A DNA stretch of 64,000 nucleotides from Candidatus Bathyarchaeota archaeon (lineage in GTDB: Archaea > Thermoproteota > Bathyarchaeia > Bathyarchaeales > Bathycorpusculaceae), in NCBI GenBank assembly GCA_963733095.1, contig CAVTBV010000004.1, forward strand, positions 20,550 through 84,549. Direction: 5' to 3'. The position numbers and the translations under genes were made by a program. The notes under the pieces are model-generated. The model saw only the letters and a program-made list of their open reading frames with translations, made no database searches and was not told where the DNA came from. This document shows positions 3,720 through 50,116 of the stretch, piece by piece (within the stretch, counting starts at the first letter, position 1; every line of letters starts with the position of its first letter).

Positions 3720-3892
3720 TAGTTTACCGTCGAATAAATATCAGCTAAGAGTTTAGATAATAAAAATATTTACTAAAACGTTAACACGACTCCGCCGCGT
3801 GGAAAAAAAATTTTTTAGTATAGGAGCTGGCTGCAACAAACAAGATAAGAAATTAGCAACACTAATATGGCACAAAACTGCTTATCCATCTT

Positions 3893-3990
3893 AGTTCTTG
3901 GGGAGCTGGGAAAATGACCTGGCTGAGAGGACGGCTGTTTGCTGTCGACCCTTAGGAACCTGAACCAGGTAATACTGGCGGAGGGAAACA
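3893..3990 (+). ncRNA. TPP (THI-box) riboswitch
   Basis: GGGGAGC, P3 (GCTGGG/CCTGGC), CTGAGA, P3a (GACGGC/GCTGTC), ACCCTT, GAACCTGA, CCAGGTAATACTGG and CGGAGGGAA match the TPP aptamer consensus; it sits directly before a thiamine transporter. Confidence 0.93.
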
Positions 3991-3993
3991 TAA

Positions 3994-4542
3994 TTGAACA
4001 CCCCAAATACAAGTGAATATAAAAACCAAAATTCCTTTAGAAATCCCAAAGTTTTAGCTGAAACCGCGATTTTTATTGCCTTGGCAACCGCGCTAAGTCT
4101 AATTGTTGTGTATACTTTGCCACAGGGTGGATCCATCACTGCTGCATCGATGGTTCCGATTTTGTGGTTGGCGCTTAGAAGAGGACCCAAAGTAGGTATA
4201 GCCGCAGGAGTTTTGTACGGGTTTATTCAGCTTGGCCTTTTACCCTATGTGATTAATCCAGTGCAGTTGTTACTTGATTATCCCTTAGCATTCGGAGTCC
4301 TTGGCTTAGCAGGATTATTCCAAAAATATCCTCTTGCTGGTGCAGCTGTTGGAATTTCTGGAAGATTCATTATGCATTTTGTTGCAGGTGTATTTTACTG
4401 GGCACCAATAGAGGCTCCAAACCTAAACCCGTTTGTTTACTCAGCCGTATACAACGCAAGCTACATACTCCCAGAACTTGTAATAAGTGGATTCATACTT
4501 TATTTGCTGCAGAAGAGTAACGTCCTGCGAGCGTTCATGTAA
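3994..4542 (+). CDS. thiT: Thiamine transporter ThiT (ECF S-component type)
   Basis: LPQGGSIT, RRGPKVG, PVQLLLDYPLAF, RFIMHFVAG and YSAVYN motifs; hydrophobic; upstream TPP riboswitch. Confidence 0.88.
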   Translation: MNTPNTSEYKNQNSFRNPKVLAETAIFIALATALSLIVVYTLPQGGSITAASMVPILWLALRRGPKVGIAAGVLYGFIQLGLLPYVINPVQLLLDYPLAFGVLGLAGLFQKYPLAGAAVGISGRFIMHFVAGVFYWAPIEAPNLNPFVYSAVYNASYILPELVISGFILYLLQKSNVLRAFM

Positions 4543-21642: not shown

Positions 21643-22260
21643 ATGGGTGGTTTGTTGGATAAAATTGACTTAAAAAAAGAGTTAAAAAGCCTGTATAATC
21701 CGTCGGCAAAGGAAGTTTCGGTTGTTGAGGTTCCAGCCATGAACTTTCTGTTGGTTAACGGCGAAGGTGAACCCACATCACCGCAGTTCAGCGACGCTAT
21801 TGAGGCATTATTCAGTGTCGCTTATACCCTCAAATTTATGGTTAAGAAAGGAAAGGGTATCGACTACGGTGTTATGCCGCTTGAAGGCTTATGGTGGGTA
21901 GATGACATGACAAAGTTTAGTCCTGACCGGAAAGATGAATGAAAGTGGACAGCCATGATAATGCAGCCCAAGTATGTCTCCGTCGAAGATTTCAACTTGG
22001 CGGTTGAACAGGTAAAAAAGAAAAAGAACCCAAATGCGCTGCCCAAGGTGAGTTTTGAAAACTTCGAAGAGGGACCTGCTGCACAAATAGTGTACATAGG
22101 ACCTTTTTCGGCTGAAGGACCAATCAAAACAAAAATACACGCTTATATCCAAAACAGCGGGCACTCATTGAGTGGAAAACACCACGAAATCTACCTAAAC
22201 AACCCAGCCACAACAGTGCCAGAAAATTTAAAAACCATCCTAAGGAAACCTATGAAATAA
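21643..22260 (+). pseudogene. GyrI-like small-molecule-binding protein interrupted by an in-frame TGA at 21940-21942
   Basis: Two in-frame ORFs: ...PLEGLWW...RKDE*KWTAMIMQP...GP...HHEIYL. The stop sits where homologs usually have Trp (W.W..MI.QP). Confidence 0.8.
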
Positions 22261-24855: not shown

Positions 24856-25482
24856 CTATTCAGCGTGAGCGTAGAGTTCAAGCAAATCATGGTTAAACCG
24901 TTCAGGCTCATCTTTGTAGGCCGAGTGGTTTGCGCCATCGTAGACTATAAGTTTTGCATTTGGCAGCTTATCGGCTAAGGTACGCATGTCTTCGCCTCCG
25001 ATGATGTTATCTTGAGAACCCCAGATTATGGTTGTGGAAAACGTGAATTGGCTAAACTTTTGCACTAAGTCTGGTTCAAGAGCGCGTGCAGGAGCAACTA
25101 AAAGTAAACCCTTAACTGGAAACTGGATAGCGTACCGCATGGCCATGTTGCCGCCTATGCTGGCGCCGACAAGTACCGGGTCCGCTTCCCCAAAAACGGT
25201 TTTGACCGCTTCATTTGCGAATGTAATGTTTTTTTCTGGAGAACGAGTCTTAGGTTGACATTGGCTTTTCATGCCATAAGGCATGTCTAAAGCCAAAAAA
25301 GGCACCCGCTTTCTCATAAGTAGATCAGTCACCCCAATCCGCTGCCAAATGTCGGATGTGTACGATAAACCGTGGAAAAAAACGATGGGAACACCAGGCG
25401 CCGTATAGTATAAGGCTGGGCACTTGTGGCCTGCAACGTTTAATGTTCTCTCCAACCAAATCTCCCTGTTTCCTATGTGCAA
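24856..25482 (-). CDS. Alpha/beta hydrolase
   Basis: FFHG, LDMPYG, GASIGG nucleophile elbow, WG.QD and HSAY. Confidence 0.88.
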   Translation of the reverse strand: MHIGNREIWLERTLNVAGHKCPALYYTAPGVPIVFFHGLSYTSDIWQRIGVTDLLMRKRVPFLALDMPYGMKSQCQPKTRSPEKNITFANEAVKTVFGEADPVLVGASIGGNMAMRYAIQFPVKGLLLVAPARALEPDLVQKFSQFTFSTTIIWGSQDNIIGGEDMRTLADKLPNAKLIVYDGANHSAYKDEPERFNHDLLELYAHAE

Positions 25483-25553
25483 AGCCGCTTATATCATTAA
25501 TTTGGGTGCGAAAGGAATAATAGCCCTACAGGGCAAGTATTGTTGGTGATTTT

Positions 25554-26030
25554 TTGACAGTTAAAGTCGGCGATAAAGCGCCTGATTTCACACTTCCCTC
25601 TCAAATGGGCGATAACGTGACGCTTTCGGAGTTTTTGGGCAAAAAAAACGTAATTTTATATTTTTATCCAAAAGATGAAACGCCAGGTTGCACAAAAGAA
25701 GCCTGCACATTCAGAGATAACTATGAACAGCTAACAAGTTTGGGTGCGGAAGTGCTCGGCGTAAGTGGGCAGAGCGTAGACTCTCACAATTCATTCGCAA
25801 CACACTACGGATTACCATTCCTGCTTCTAGCCGATGTAGACAACAAGGTACGCGAGCTTTATGGAGTGCCTTCAACCATGGGGTTTCTTCCCGGCAGAGT
25901 TACCTACATCATTGACAAGAAGGGTATTGTCCGCCACATTTTCAATTCCCAAAGCCAAGCGCAGCGGCACGTTGAAGAAGCCAAGAAAACGCTGATAGAA
26001 ATAGAGAAAGAAGAGCAAGCTACCCCATAG
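25554..26030 (+). CDS. bcp: Peroxiredoxin (BCP/PrxQ family)
   Basis: [19 protein letters not shown] and GRVTYIID. Confidence 0.93.
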
Positions 26031-26040
26031 ATGGCGAACA

Positions 26041-27279
26041 ATGATGCTCAACATTTACAACACGTTAACGAGGAAAACCGAACAGTTCCAACCAGCAGAA
26101 GACATGCTGATTAAAATGTACACATGTGGACCCTCAACCTACCAACCTGCCCACATCGGAAACTACCGCACTTTTCTCTTCGAAGACATCTTTCAACGTT
26201 ACCTCGAATACTTAGGGTACAAAGTAACTCGACTGATGACCCTAACCGACGTAGAAGACAAGGCGATTGAGCAAGCTAAAAAAGAAAACATAACCGTTGA
26301 AGAGTTAACACGTAAAAACGAAGCAGTTTTCTTCAAGGATTTCGAAGCTTTGAAAATTAAAAAGCCCGATTACCCAGTGAGGGCTTCAACAGCGGTAGAC
26401 CAAGCAGCAAAACTAATCACACAATTAGTCGATAAAGGCTATGCCTACTGGAACACCTACAACGGCGCCCAAAACGTCTATTTTGACCCCAAAAAATTCA
26501 AGGGGTTCGGCAAACTTTCCAATTTAGACATGAGTAAGTGGCCCAAAAAGAAACGCCGCTTCCACAAAGACACCTATCCGGGAACACCTTGGAACCTTGG
26601 GGACTTTGTGCTTTGGCACGGATGCGAGGAACAGGGATTCTGTTACCAAACGCCGATTGGCAATGGTCGACCCGCATGGAATATTCAAGATGCATCCATC
26701 ATAACTAAACATCTGGGCTTCACCGTTGATGTTGGATGTGGCGGAATCGACAATTTAGTCAGGCATCATGACTACACTATTGCTGTTATGGAAGCGGTTT
26801 CGGGTAAGCATTCCTCAAGGTACTGGCTGCACGGCGCCCACCTGTTTGTCGATAGCAAAAAGATGTCTAAAAGTAAAGGCAACGTGTACTACCCAAACGA
26901 CCTCCTAGCCAAAGGTTTCAGCGCCGAACAGCTAAGGTTCTTCCTTATCTACGCACCATATCGGAAAAAACTAAACTTCACCTTTGAAAAGTTGAAAAAG
27001 ACAAGTCAAAGGCTGGATTCATTTAAAGGCATGGTTTCGGAGTTGGAGAAAACAAAGTCGACGAGCCAAACTGAAAAACAAGTACGCCTCACAAGCAAAA
27101 TTACCGTCGATTTTGAAGAGCACATGAACAACGATTTGGACGTAAAATCTGCATTCGATAGCCTGTATGAAACAACAAATCAACTTTATGAGATGCGGGA
27201 GTCGTTGAGTTCAAAAGATGTAAAAAATGTGTTGAGTAATTTGCACAGGGTTGATGGAGTGCTTCAATGTATTCTTTAG
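26041..27279 (+). CDS. Cysteinyl-tRNA synthetase paralog (truncated, altered active site)
   Basis: YTCGP, HIGN, TDVEDK, DFVLW and KMSKS present; GRPAWNIQD and RHHDYT replace GRPGWHIEC and PHHENE; ends after the DALR-like region. Confidence 0.85.
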   Translation: MMLNIYNTLTRKTEQFQPAEDMLIKMYTCGPSTYQPAHIGNYRTFLFEDIFQRYLEYLGYKVTRLMTLTDVEDKAIEQAKKENITVEELTRKNEAVFFKDFEALKIKKPDYPVRASTAVDQAAKLITQLVDKGYAYWNTYNGAQNVYFDPKKFKGFGKLSNLDMSKWPKKKRRFHKDTYPGTPWNLGDFVLWHGCEEQGFCYQTPIGNGRPAWNIQDASIITKHLGFTVDVGCGGIDNLVRHHDYTIAVMEAVSGKHSSRYWLHGAHLFVDSKKMSKSKGNVYYPNDLLAKGFSAEQLRFFLIYAPYRKKLNFTFEKLKKTSQRLDSFKGMVSELEKTKSTSQTEKQVRLTSKITVDFEEHMNNDLDVKSAFDSLYETTNQLYEMRESLSSKDVKNVLSNLHRVDGVLQCIL

Positions 27280-27524
27280 ACGAGTTCGCCTACAAGCTTT
27301 ACTCTTGTGAACGTTTCTTCGCGGTGCGGGGCCATCTCAAGTTCTTCAGTTAAGTCTTTGCCTGCATCATGCATGCCCATATGGTCGCCTTCCATCCAAA
27401 AACTGCTGTCCGTGACCTCATAGACTTTGCCTTGATAGGCTATATAGGCTGGTTTACCGTTTTTTCCATTATTTTCCTGTAGTTGTTGGCGCGTTATCTT
27501 TTTTTGTTCTGCCAAAAAATTCAC
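27276..27524 (-). CDS. Cytochrome b5-like heme/steroid-binding protein
   Basis: NGKNGKPAYIA..GKVY.VT, W..G.H..H.AGKDLT and APH. Confidence 0.88.
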   Translation of the reverse strand: MNFLAEQKKITRQQLQENNGKNGKPAYIAYQGKVYEVTDSSFWMEGDHMGMHDAGKDLTEELEMAPHREETFTRVKLVGELV

Positions 27525-27578
27525 CTTTTCTTATCTGTTAAAAGTTTGAGGAGTTTTAAATGTTTAGTGGTTGCTGGG

Positions 27579-28646
27579 TCAGTTTTTTATGATGGGACCA
27601 GATGATGCTTGATAAGCCGCGTTTATGTTGATCCTGCCAAGGTTTGTTTTGCTGTTTATGTCGATGTTGCTAAGAGAAGGGTAGTTGTCTGATTGGATTG
27701 GGGATTGTTTGCCTGAAAAATGCTGCAAGTCAGCGTTTATGCTTCCCAACTTTGTTTGTGAAATGAGTTGGGCTCCAACATCACCGTCGATGACTAACCC
27801 GACGTTTACTGAACCTAAGTCCGTAACTGCGTTGATTTGCAGTTTTCCCTGAAATGTTTTAGTTTGGGTTATATCCATGGTCACTGAGCCAGCGTTTGTT
27901 TTTAGAGCAAAGGTGTTGTTGCCTTCAACGTTGATTTGGCTCATTCGGAGATCTATATTTCCCGCTTGGGTTCTAAGTGTCACGTTCCCCGCGATGGTGA
28001 TGTTTTGCAGGTTTGCGCCTACAGTTCCAGCTGTCGATTGCAGGTTGAGGTTCTCAAAGGTTGAAGGTTTATCGGCTGTTAAGCTGACTTGCCCCGCTTG
28101 TGAGGTCACGTTGAGGTTTAGGGTTAGGGCGGTGTTAAGGTAGATGTTACAGTTAGCGTTAAGTCTTGAAAAAGCAGTAGATTCCTTGATCTTCGCAGTT
28201 ATTGTTAACTCGTTGCCTACTGTATCATTGTAGAAGCTAACTTGTATTGGACTATCACCGCTGCCAAAAACAGTTTTTGAAGCTGTCCCATCGAGCGTAA
28301 TCAGGAAATTATCGTTGGAAGCATTTTGGATAAAAACATTTACTCTAAGCCCCTCCGTTTGGACGTTGAGATTTAACTTGTTAATATCAGAGGTTTTGTC
28401 TTGGTATGTTTGCCCAAAAGTTACTGTTGAGAACGGTGCAGCCAGTAAGGCAGCCATGATTATGCCTCCAACTAAGATGGCAATTAACACTATGGCTCCA
28501 ATTATTATTGGGTCATTTCTGATTGGTTTCATCGGGGTTAGCGGTGGCGAAGAAGCATAAGTGGCTGGTTCGACTGGGGTTCCGCATCTGTTGCAGAAAT
28601 GCGCGTCCTCATCAAGTTTTGTTCCGCATCTTCTGCAATAAGGCAC
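27579..28646 (-). CDS. Zinc-ribbon, single-TM protein with beta-repeat (DUF4097-like) extracellular domain
   Basis: YCRRCG...FCNRCG, a TM helix and repeated T.AG.V/I motifs. Confidence 0.75.
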   Translation of the reverse strand: MPYCRRCGTKLDEDAHFCNRCGTPVEPATYASSPPLTPMKPIRNDPIIIGAIVLIAILVGGIIMAALLAAPFSTVTFGQTYQDKTSDINKLNLNVQTEGLRVNVFIQNASNDNFLITLDGTASKTVFGSGDSPIQVSFYNDTVGNELTITAKIKESTAFSRLNANCNIYLNTALTLNLNVTSQAGQVSLTADKPSTFENLNLQSTAGTVGANLQNITIAGNVTLRTQAGNIDLRMSQINVEGNNTFALKTNAGSVTMDITQTKTFQGKLQINAVTDLGSVNVGLVIDGDVGAQLISQTKLGSINADLQHFSGKQSPIQSDNYPSLSNIDINSKTNLGRININAAYQASSGPIIKN

Positions 28647-47908: not shown

Positions 47909-50116
47909 TTAGCTTTTTCTTTTGCTCCGACTATACATGATAACCAAGGTTGTGACTGAGAAACCTAATATGATGAGTAACACGGATGGGATAATCCATG
48001 GCGGATATTCAGGCGTGGACGGCAAATTAGCGAAAACAATGGATACTTCATGTGTGCTGAAATGGGTTGTACACCATACGTAGTAGTTGTCGCCGTCTTG
48101 CACGTATCCTTGGTCAGTGGCTACTTGACTGTCAACGTATATTGTTGGGGTTGCCCCGTTGGGTACTGCACCTTTGGGAATGGTTATGTTGCAAAAACCC
48201 CAGTTGCCGTTTTGCCCAATTATAATGAAAGAGATGTTTGTCGCTGTTTGGTTTGCGGATAAGGTGACGTTAGAGATTTGTTGAGCTGTCATATTGCTCC
48301 AAATCGGCAGTTCCACGGTGGTGTTGTCGTCTGTGGTTACTTCGATTGTCAGGATGTTAGGGGTTGGGGTTGGTGTGGAAATGTTTGTGAGAAGCGGGGT
48401 TGCTGTGGGTACGGGTGCTGGAGTTGTGGTGGGTAGCAGAGGTGATTGGGTTGGAGTCGCAGTTGCCGTAGGCGTAGGTGCAGGTGTTGGTGTAGGTATT
48501 ATGGTTGGTTCTGGGGTTGGAGTCGCCGTTGGAGTTGGTGTAGGTGATGGAGTGGGTGTAGCAGAAGGGGTTGGATTTGGTATCGATGTTGGCCTTGGGG
48601 TAATTGTTGGTTTAGGTGTCTGGGTTGGAATAGGGGTCGATGAAGGTGTGGGAGTAGGAGGGGTGGTTGGCGTGGGGGTTGGGTTAGGTGTAGGGGTTGG
48701 TGTGGTTGTTGGGGTTGGTGTGGGAGTTGGCGTTGGTGTAGAGGTTGGAGAGGGTGTAGGGGTAGGAGTTAAGGTGGGAGTAGGGGAGGGGGTCGGAGTT
48801 TTTGTGGGGGTTGGGTTAGGTGTAGGGGTTGGCGTGATTGTTGGCGTGGGAGTAGGTGTTGGTGTGGCCGTTGGATTTGGTGTTGGACTTGGTGACGGTG
48901 TTGAGCTAGGAGTAGGTGTTGGAGTAAGAGTCAGTGTTGGCGTGGGGGTCTCTGTTGGAGTCGGGGTTGGAGTGGGCGTCGGGGTATCGCTGGGTATTGG
49001 AGTCGGAGTAGGCGTTGGTTGGAAATCGCACCTTAGAGGGCTACCTAACCCCGTAACATAGTCATATCCTTCTGTTGCGTTGTAGCCGTTTGAGCCGTTG
49101 GTTATGTCTCGGAAGTAAGAGGAATAATCGGTTTTTGCTCTGGTATATAGGTTGGCGTTTGTTGCAGATTCGTTGAGGGCGTGGATTGCTGCCCACTGTG
49201 GTGTACCTGCACTTGTGCCTCCAACTGCTTCAACCCGAGAGTTCCAAACTACAATAAATCCTGTTTTAGGGTCAGCGTCGTAAGAAACGTCGGGTACACA
49301 CCGTTGGGTATTATTGAGTCCATAATTACTTTGGTATTGAGGCATACTTTCATAGGCGCTGACTCCGCCGCCGCTGCCGTTCCAACCAGTTTCGGAAATC
49401 ACTGACCCGTCTGAGCCTATGTTCAGTGTGGTTCCCCCTACAGCAACCACGTTTGGTGAACTTGCAGGCCAAATCGTTCCTGCCCCAAGGTCACCGGAGG
49501 CAGCGAAGAACACTTTTCCGTTGCTGACAAGATGTGAATCGTAGCCCAGTTGATCGTGTGATTCAGTGCTCCCCCAACTCATCGATATTGCAACCACATC
49601 TGGTCGACTGGCAGCATAATCCACCGCTGCGATTAGGTCGCTTACCGTGTTGCTGGTTGCTTCCACCAGCAGAATTTTTGCTTCAGGTGCAATAGCGTGA
49701 GCCCATTCGACATCCAAACATGTTTCCACCTGCCAGTCGACGTTTGTGCTGCTAATGTTGTCTGACATCATATGCACTTCAAAATTGCTTTCTGTGGGCA
49801 AGGGAAAGTCGAATTGGCTGGAAAACAAAGTCAAATCATGCGAGATTGTGGGGGTCTGGAAGGCGTCAATTATGGCGATTGTGGTACCATTTCCACCCGA
49901 CGAAGGCAACCCATAAGCGGCTTTTATCTGGGATGGAATATACAAGTCTGTGTAGTTGTTGGCAAAAGAATAAACACTCAGCGGAACACAGTAGAATTCG
50001 CCCAGCGATTTTGAAACCTGAATCAAACGAAATTCCAGAGTAAAACTACTGAAAACGACAAGTGCAATCGCCAAGACAGTTAAGGCACGGAACAGTAGAT
50101 GCCTCAAATCTAACAC
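47909..50116 (-). CDS. Cell-surface S53 (sedolisin-family) peptidase with Pro/Thr linker and C-terminal membrane anchor
   Basis: Signal/TM N-terminus; ETCLDVE, ASGD, PDVS, GGTSAG and GYD.VTGLG motifs; long PT repeat; PEYP plus TM plus basic tail. Confidence 0.9.
48350..49020 (-). repeat. Degenerate (Pro-Thr)n coding repeat
   Basis: About 220 codons of TPTP-rich sequence with diversified synonymous codons. Confidence 0.9.

Follow-up and report, generated by a model that had tools for sequence, protein, structure and literature searches.

Aminoacyl-tRNA synthetase paralogs that lack the anticodon-binding domain have repeatedly been found to carry out new chemistry; for example, MshC is used in mycothiol synthesis, GluQRS in tRNA modification and CysRS* in UGA recoding. 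Two of these, CysRS* and MshC, are the sole paralogs of cysteinyl-tRNA synthetase (CysRS) listed in the accessible portion of a 2022 review of synthetase duplications (PMC9437257). The CysRS* of Desulfobacterales has no anticodon domain and, as far as the accessible text of Mukai et al. 2017 goes, is believed to act on tRNA(Cys)UCA, which resembles tRNA-Sec (PMC5389517). Here we describe another CysRS-derived gene, which lies in a 64,000-nucleotide stretch of DNA from a Candidatus Bathyarchaeota archaeon (assembly GCA_963733095.1, contig CAVTBV010000004.1, positions 20,550 to 84,549 of the forward strand). This whole stretch, referred to as the window, is G000:C4:20550-84549 in our numbering, and the host genome, G000, is 2.84 Mb in size, consists of 16 contigs and is 95% complete. 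An earlier prediction, made from the letters of the window only, described the gene product as a CysRS paralog with a remodelled pocket and no anticodon domain, encoded in an operon with a peroxiredoxin. Our own reading, which is tentative and held with a little less than even confidence, is that the gene encodes an active ligase that adenylates an amino acid and passes it to a non-canonical acceptor, probably an RNA-like polyanion.

The paralog and its amino acid pocket

The host genome also contains a canonical, full-length cysS gene (472 amino acids; G000:C14:65451-66836), which scores 507.8 bits with the CysRS model TIGR00435 against a cut-off of 340. Therefore, the CysRS-like gene in the window is a paralog and not the sole route to Cys-tRNA; had it been the sole route, this would have told against the original prediction. 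No SepRS was detected above cut-off in the genome. Of the 151 genomes of the class that were sampled, the host among them, six have a copy with over 50% identity to the paralog, and all six also have a second, canonical-type match. The paralog itself scores 318.6 bits with TIGR00435 (320.8 in the genome search), which is under the cut-off, and it covers profile positions 1-399 of 466.

The absence of the anticodon domain is borne out by several observations. The alignment to E. coli CysRS (PDB 1li5, 461 amino acids), from which the residue numbers are taken, stops near residue 389-395. Neither Pfam CysS_C (PF23493, anticodon-binding) nor DALR_2 has a match in the paralog even at E<=1, and the canonical CysRS of the same genome matches them with E values of 1.9e-11 and 9.8e-9, respectively. 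The C-terminal tail beyond the point at which the paralog ends has a median of 42 amino acids in 125 CysRS-like representatives and is 0 in the paralog. What remains is predicted to fold well (AlphaFold2 model, pLDDT 90.2), and the best fold matches in the PDB are CysRS (TM scores of 0.83-0.89) followed by MshC (0.83-0.85).

For a survey of the amino acid pocket, the best 150 representatives of 50%-identity clusters were taken, and the 134 with at least 380 amino acids were aligned together with the paralog and the canonical CysRS of the genome. Family rows and three odd rows were set aside, which left 125 canonical-like rows for the counts. In the alignment to 1li5, the paralog keeps C28, T68, W205, H234, H235, HIGN and KMSKS, in agreement with the original prediction that both ATP motifs, the cysteine of CGP and the histidine pair were retained. 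The HIGN form is present but not distinctive, as it is normal in archaeal-type CysRS, including the canonical copy in this genome. In A1, an alignment of 19 family sequences, CGP through HIGN, T69, W213, H242/H243 and KMSK (paralog numbering) are invariant.

The changes are concentrated in two motifs. WHIEC has become WNIQD (H206N, E208Q, C209D) and HHENE has become HHDYT (E236D, N237Y, E238T); just ahead of the latter, P233R turns P-H-H into R-H-H. The canonical residue is found in 124 (H206), 124 (E208), 122 (C209), 115 (P233), 104 (N237) and 124 (E238) of the 125 canonical-like rows, and all of the family representatives have N, Q, D, R, Y, and T or N at these six positions. A third replacement, DIHGGG by DVGCGG, is real when E. 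coli is the reference. However, its cysteine is shared by the canonical copy (DIHCGG) and 21 of the 125 representatives, and the H224 position varies inside the family (G, A, H, N or Y).

Two of the six positions belong to the zinc site. The zinc ligands of E. coli CysRS, which we take to be C28, C209, H234 and E238, correspond to C, D, H and T in the paralog; C28 and H234 occur in all 125 canonical-like rows. According to the accessible text of one report, CysRS picks cysteine by means of a zinc-thiolate bond (PMC7373986).

Judged from these alignments, the remodelling of the pocket is real, specific, fixed and by no means a chance pattern, with six near-invariant positions switched across the whole family, and the original prediction was right on this point. 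As far as the sequence can tell, all of the elements for the binding of ATP and an alpha-amino acid and for the formation of an aminoacyl-adenylate are retained, and a metal may still bind, given that Cys29, Asp217 and His242 are in place. A pocket that has lost E208 and E238 and gained R241 and Y245 would be suited to a side chain that is anionic or bidentate.

Other CysRS-like proteins display parts of this pattern. C209D occurs as the only change in three full-length proteins (P0161, P0210 and P0270), and there are further lineages of about 410 amino acids that have no C-terminal domain and a full zinc tetrad (P0129, P0136, P0142, P0162, P0177 and P0200). Two more short forms, P0163 and P0186, have partly similar pocket changes (WNVQC/HHENT and WHIQD/HHSAQ). 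From these sequences, the anticodon domain seems to have been lost from CysRS-like proteins several times. A cysteine-persulfide synthase activity was also considered and dropped, as the paralog has KAIE where the CARS-type KIIK motif would sit.

The acceptor side and the proposed reaction

The second property that sets the family apart is its charge. Five of the six family representatives have an isoelectric point (pI) of about 9 and a net charge of +7 to +24, and the sixth has a net charge of 0. In the 129 other representatives, among which are P0133 and the three odd ones, the median pI of the same region is 5.95 and the net charge is -9. The gain is located in the CP1 insertion, with a family median of +6.5 versus -1 in the 125 CysRS-like representatives, and in the KMSKS/SC fold, with +7 versus +3. 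It is with these two elements that class I synthetases hold the acceptor end. An invariant family motif, W-P-K-K-K-R-R-F-H-K-D-T-Y-P-G, aligns to Q-A-G-A-R-V of E. coli CysRS and places PKKK on QAGA. In the accessible portion of the CysRS* study, this CP1 motif is described as reading the first acceptor-stem base pair (1:72) in CysRS and as being altered in CysRS* (PMC5389517). The conserved basic clamp formed by CP1 and KMSKS suggests that the family binds a macromolecular or polyanionic acceptor.

The original prediction had proposed that the enzyme works independently of tRNA. The missing anticodon domain alone is not enough to show this, as CysRS* likewise has no anticodon domain and, from what its description says, is thought to charge a special tRNA (PMC5389517).

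In the reaction that we propose, the enzyme would activate cysteine or a close polar analogue, and it would do so on a metal site reduced to Cys29, Asp217 and His242, in which coordination positions have been freed. The aminoacyl group would then be passed to a polyanionic acceptor gripped by the basic clamp of CP1 and the KMSKS/SC fold. Most likely, this acceptor would be an RNA 3' end or a tRNA whose anticodon plays no part in recognition, in the manner of CysRS* or GluQRS. It would probably not be tRNA(Cys) in routine Cys-tRNA(Cys) synthesis, and we would not expect it to be a sugar of the mycothiol type.

Several observations weigh against this proposal. The genome has one tRNA-Cys species and no odd tRNA, and no candidate partner RNA was found in it. 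The family flanks were scanned for tRNA with Rfam (nine divergent loci) and ARAGORN (17 loci), with one locus, L105, in both scans, so that 25 different loci were covered; 24 of them have no tRNA near the paralog, and L105 has a tRNA-Leu(CAG). The basic surface could also bind phosphorylated small molecules. MshC, which is tRNA-independent, has the same layout and a similar fold, so that the architecture alone cannot separate the two kinds of enzyme. Finally, C209D alone is found in three of the 125 full-length CysRS-like representatives, and so cysteine stays a possible substrate.

Some of the tRNA results need a comment of their own. Two identical tRNA-Cys(GCA) genes were found, at G000:C10:9925-9998 and G000:C11:2-75; their flanks are identical and one of them is at a contig end, and they are probably an assembly overlap and not two genes. 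The only tRNA in the window is a tRNA-His, 23 kb from the paralog. Neither SepSecS nor tRNA-Sec was detected above cut-off in the genome, and weak matches to the tRNA-Sec model were rejected as ordinary tRNA-Lys, tRNA-Ser and tRNA-Cys.

The same pocket might instead belong to a stress-proof back-up CysRS, which would make Cys-tRNA(Cys) by using only the acceptor stem and U73 and in which an oxidisable cysteine ligand would have been replaced by aspartate for service under oxidative stress or zinc shortage. The paralog has kept C28, T68, W205 and H234, which is in favour of this explanation; the three full-length proteins with C209D alone fit it as well, and so do the operon with a peroxiredoxin in one clade and the accessory status of the gene, as back-up isozymes are accessory (both described below). 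There are also precedents in the accessible parts of two reports, namely CysRS paralogs linked to Zur in bacteria (PMC2770081) and a CysRS variant without the anticodon-binding domain that was less active but working in the CysRS* study (PMC5389517). However, the Zur-linked paralogs, as described there, retain the zinc ligands (PMC2770081), and the paralog has five more fixed changes in the pocket (H206N, E208Q, P233R, N237Y and E238T/N), which go beyond what a ligand swap would need. In addition, the motif in CP1 that reads the acceptor stem has been replaced, and the TIGR00435 score is under the cut-off. We regard a back-up CysRS as quite unlikely.

Family, distribution and gene neighbourhood

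More than 120 clusters at 90% identity match the paralog at 73-91% identity, and nearly all of them have 409-417 amino acids. Their source annotations read 'cysteinyl-tRNA synthetase' or 'class I tRNA ligase family protein'. The close relatives come from metagenome-assembled genomes (MAGs) of Bathyarchaeota/Bathyarchaeia from peat, fen, bog and soil. The best 80 loci in species-representative genomes are 52-79% identical and are chiefly from Bathyarchaeia; the other hosts are Methanoperedens, the Asgard archaea Hodarchaeota and Promethearchaeota, a closed 5.6-Mb Syntrophobacter chromosome and a Desulforhabdus MAG (Syntrophobacteraceae). A few records with bacterial names have Bathyarchaeial synteny and are probably misbinned. 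The family has spread as a single gene over archaeal phyla and into Syntrophobacteraceae, which is consistent with a reaction whose substrates are all universal.

A quick IQ-TREE phylogeny (LG+G4) was made from 90 rows, which consisted of 29 family members, the canonical CysRS of the host and 60 other representatives of at most 560 amino acids. The 29 family rows form one clade (SH-aLRT 99, branch length 0.32) together with P0181, a very divergent protein that has none of the CGP, HIGN-type and KMSKS motifs. Among 86 family open reading frames (ORFs) from 85 loci, CGP, HxGN and RHHDY are each present in 83, KMSK in 82 and WN[IV]QD in 80; in four further ORFs the motif is WNLQD or WNAQD. The other ORFs without a motif are mostly broken or truncated; L103 and L115, which have no KMSK match, are of full length (418 and 419 amino acids). 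Of 1081 pairs, 50 have dS<1.5, and the ratio of nonsynonymous to synonymous substitution rates (dN/dS) in these has a median of 0.114 and ranges from 0.043 to 0.175. The family is under purifying selection.

The family can be recognized by a length of about 411 amino acids, no C-terminal tail, the series C-G-P-S ... WN[IV]QD ... RHHDY[T/N] ... KMSKS and the basic CP1 motif, and the paralog has all of these. On this sequence evidence, we conclude that there is a well-defined CysRS-derived family of conserved sequence, and that the gene in the window is predicted to be a functional member of it. No fused forms of the family were found among proteins of 722-2060 amino acids, in which the best match is 40% identical.

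Two sets of CysRS fusions lie outside the family. They are among P0277-P0390 and P0272-P0276 and consist of many fusions of about 727 amino acids between a CysRS core and a glycosyltransferase-2 domain, several of them named Chloroflexota, and of fusions of about 771 amino acids between CysRS and PALP, a cysteine-synthase-like domain, one of them named Thermodesulfobacteriota. These fusions may represent other CysRS-based pathways.

The gene is accessory. Among 201 sampled genomes of the host's taxonomic family, it was detected in 19, and among the 99 high-quality ones in 12. It was detected in five of 70 genera, and in the host's own genus in four of 11 genomes, the host included. Several of the apparent absences are due to broken copies. 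The copy in G326 (L124, G326:C14, 244-1553, minus strand) is split by the loss of one base in the A-run that encodes PKKK, which corresponds to window positions 26542-26550; strict E-value searches score genomes with such a split copy as lacking the gene. The copy in G268 has three in-frame stops, and the one in L106 is split. These three broken copies may be sequencing errors or true decay, and this A-run is a likely hotspot for either sequencing errors or real frameshifts.

A genome of the same genus, G102 (L125, G102:C82, 1047-1968), has no paralog, and in it the genes for the peroxiredoxin (bcp) and for a cytochrome b5-like protein are adjacent, convergent and about 184 nucleotides apart. 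G102 and the host thus display a clean presence/absence polymorphism of the paralog.

In 50 of the 85 loci, bcp immediately precedes the paralog on the same strand, with a median gap of 13 nucleotides, and the cytochrome b5-like gene is convergent and directly downstream in 50 of the 85. All of these loci fall within a single clade (identity of at least about 59%) that has a longer synteny block in common. In a second clade, a Y-family (DinB/Dpo4-type) DNA polymerase gene is directly downstream in eight loci (L038, L039, L040, L109, L111, L113, L115 and L119), with gaps of -13 to 19 nucleotides, and one is within 8 kb in seven more loci. The remaining loci have unrelated housekeeping neighbours (FBA/PFK, Lon, carA/carB, CNNM, PRAI and M48). 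A Y-family polymerase is an unusual partner for a synthetase-like gene. PADLOC found no defence-system match for the paralog, bcp or the polymerase.

The operon with a peroxiredoxin that was claimed originally therefore exists here and in the 50 related loci, but it is confined to one clade and other clades differ. The bcp and polymerase links are each essentially one evolutionary event and, therefore, neither of them defines the function. The neighbourhoods thus have clade-specific links but no family-wide partner in the 85 loci. Both bcp and Y-family polymerases handle damage, which is only a hint of a role in damage or stress.

These results bear on the function favoured in the original prediction, an MshC-like ligase in a redox module that would join cysteine, an oxidised form of it or a related amino acid to a small-molecule amine without a tRNA and thus form a thiol or redox metabolite alongside the peroxiredoxin. 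The layout, the length of about 410 amino acids, the close fold match and the intact ATP motifs are as in MshC, and bcp precedes the gene at a short distance in the loci counted above. A few scattered redox neighbours are present as well, namely a pyridine-nucleotide disulfide oxidoreductase in L106 and a nitroreductase in L104. However, in this comparison, which is based on hidden Markov model scores and fold matches, the paralog scores only 184.1 bits with TIGR03447 against a cut-off of 485.1. The rest of the pathway was not detected in the 95%-complete genome: the best matches to MshA (147.9 bits versus 462.5) and MshD (28.2 versus 163.1) are both below cut-off, and there is no MshB/LmbE-type match at E<=0.001. 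No biosynthetic gene, including those for a glycosyltransferase, a deacetylase or an acetyltransferase, is conserved beside the paralog across the 85 loci. A low-molecular-weight thiol thus has no pathway context. The redox module is reduced to the synteny block of a single clade, and in G102 bcp persists beside the cytochrome b5-like gene without the paralog. The movement of a single gene between phyla and the strongly basic character of the family also speak against a pathway of this kind, and we consider it unlikely.

Stress-inducible synthetase paralogs make ApnA, and so one could imagine that the family transfers nothing and is either an adenylate former that yields a nucleotide alarmone of the ApnA type or a regulatory or scaffold pseudo-synthetase. 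The dispensability of the gene (19 of the 201 genomes), the broken copies in G268, G326 and L106, the stress-gene neighbours and the divergent, motif-less P0181 inside the clade would be consistent with this. However, the ATP motifs, the threonine that binds the amino group and the tryptophan lid are invariant in A1, the dN/dS ratio is about 0.11 and the basic clamp is conserved, and we find such a role very unlikely.

A more unusual reaction can also be considered. As a self-contained, horizontally mobile enzyme of anaerobic archaea, the protein might do what no known CysRS relative does. It might charge a tRNA, independently of the anticodon, with an amino acid other than cysteine (for example, an oxidised cysteine such as cysteine sulfinate, or a different small residue of polar or anionic nature, chosen by the Cys/Asp/His site together with Arg241 and Tyr245), or it might aminoacylate a nucleic-acid end that is not a tRNA in an oxidative or DNA-damage response. 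Damage is brought in by the partners in two clades, a peroxiredoxin and a Y-family polymerase, respectively. We view this version as rather improbable.

The features of the locus are listed in Table 1. The coordinates, the length of the paralog and the spacing of 10 nucleotides after bcp that were claimed originally were all verified on the ORFs of the window. The two genes are co-directional with bcp upstream, and the true start of the paralog is likely the second ATG, at 26044, which matches its relatives. The Bcp protein scores 112.6 bits with NCBIfam PRK09437, under the cut-off of 140. The cytochrome b5-like gene is convergent with the paralog and overlaps its stop by four nucleotides. The intergenic region ahead of bcp would be the sole space for a promoter driving bcp and the paralog, and no terminator-like sites were found in 25300..27700.

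Table 1. Positions of the genes and motifs at the paralog locus (window coordinates).
Feature	Position	Strand	Evidence or remark
Intergenic region of 71 nucleotides between a divergent alpha/beta-hydrolase gene and bcp	25483..25553		A/T-rich TATA-like stretch
bcp/PrxQ-type thiol peroxidase gene	25554..26030	+	158 amino acids; PF00578 AhpC-TSA, E 2.2e-40
CysRS-derived paralog gene	26041..27279	+	412 amino acids; PF01406, E 5.3e-76
C29-G-P (aligned to E. coli C28) through H38-I-G-N (HIGH-type ATP motif)	26125..26163	+	Alignment to 1li5
CP1 insertion motif LDMSKWPKKKRRFHKDTYPG, in place of E. coli CysRS Q-A-G-A-R-V	26524..26583	+	Alignments
W213-N-I-Q-D217, in place of W-H-I-E-C	26677..26691	+	Alignment; C209 replaced by D
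R241-H-H-D-Y-T246, in place of P-H-H-E-N-E	26761..26778	+	H234 kept; E238 replaced by T
K274-M-S-K-S ATP/transition-state loop	26860..26874	+	Alignment
Cytochrome b5-like haem-binding domain gene, 82 amino acids	27276..27524	-	PF00173, E 1.5e-8

Elsewhere in the window, a thiamine pyrophosphate (TPP) riboswitch is present at 3889-4003 on the plus strand (RF00059, 56.3 bits versus a gathering score of 54.3), and it extends into the start of the ORF at 3994..4542. A strong spike in GC skew at 48-50 kb arises from the long Pro/Thr repeat linker of a 735-amino-acid protein (47909-50116, minus strand), which is probably located at the surface, either secreted or anchored; the spike marks neither an RNA gene nor a feature of replication. 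Two adjacent ORFs of 99 and 101 amino acids on the plus strand (21643-21942 and 21955-22260) match a single ORF of 201 amino acids in G038 of the same genus (L036 11545..12150), and the gene at 21643-22260 appears to be split in the host.

Significance and comparison with known relatives

We found no description of the WNIQD/RHHDY family in the literature that was searched. The family is apparently undescribed, and synthetase paralogs without an anticodon domain are already known as a kind. The family is large, with members in at least 80 species-level genomes, and is catalytically intact by sequence. Annotation pipelines may count the paralog as CysRS, which matters when one judges the supply of Cys-tRNA in such genomes. 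The Bathyarchaeia, Methanoperedens and Asgard hosts do not have cultured genetic systems, and so their redox and translation biology is mostly inferred from annotation. The amino acid and the acceptor are tractable in vitro, and their identification could uncover a reaction that is new in RNA modification or charging, or else a new archaeal metabolite.

As compared with canonical CysRS, the paralog has the same Rossmann catalytic core, CP1, KMSKS/SC fold and helical bundle, and it is 30-40% identical. It differs at two of the four zinc-ligand positions and at four further near-invariant positions of the pocket, and canonical CysRS is acidic whereas the paralog family is basic.

MshC (PDB 3c8z and 8hfm), the cysteine:GlcN-Ins ligase, is likewise a CysRS paralog of about 410 amino acids that has kept the ATP motifs and has no anticodon-binding domain. 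However, it is only 22-23% identical to the paralog in the fold alignment, and the second zinc cysteine of MshC is an aspartate in the paralog. The hosts also differ, in that MshC belongs to Actinobacteria and the paralog family to anaerobic archaea and Syntrophobacteraceae.

GluQRS (YadB), which is listed in the review cited above (PMC9437257), is a truncated GluRS paralog that glutamylates queuosine in tRNA(Asp). It is a class I enzyme that has no anticodon-binding domain and nevertheless has a tRNA as its substrate. As it is from a different synthetase family, the resemblance is in the mode of action only, and a modified base as the acceptor is not implied for the paralog.

The comparison with CysRS* is by its published description and not by sequence. 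Like the paralog, CysRS* is a second cysS copy without an anticodon-binding domain and with an altered acceptor motif in CP1; the accessible text gives this motif as PTVS, and it is PKKK in the paralog (PMC5389517). The same text places CysRS* downstream of selC*, the gene for tRNA(Cys)UCA, and selB* (PMC5389517), whereas the paralog has no linked tRNA in 24 of the 25 loci, the tRNA-Leu in L105 being the exception, and selB* was not searched for. By analogy, CysRS* is the closest precedent for the way in which the paralog would act.

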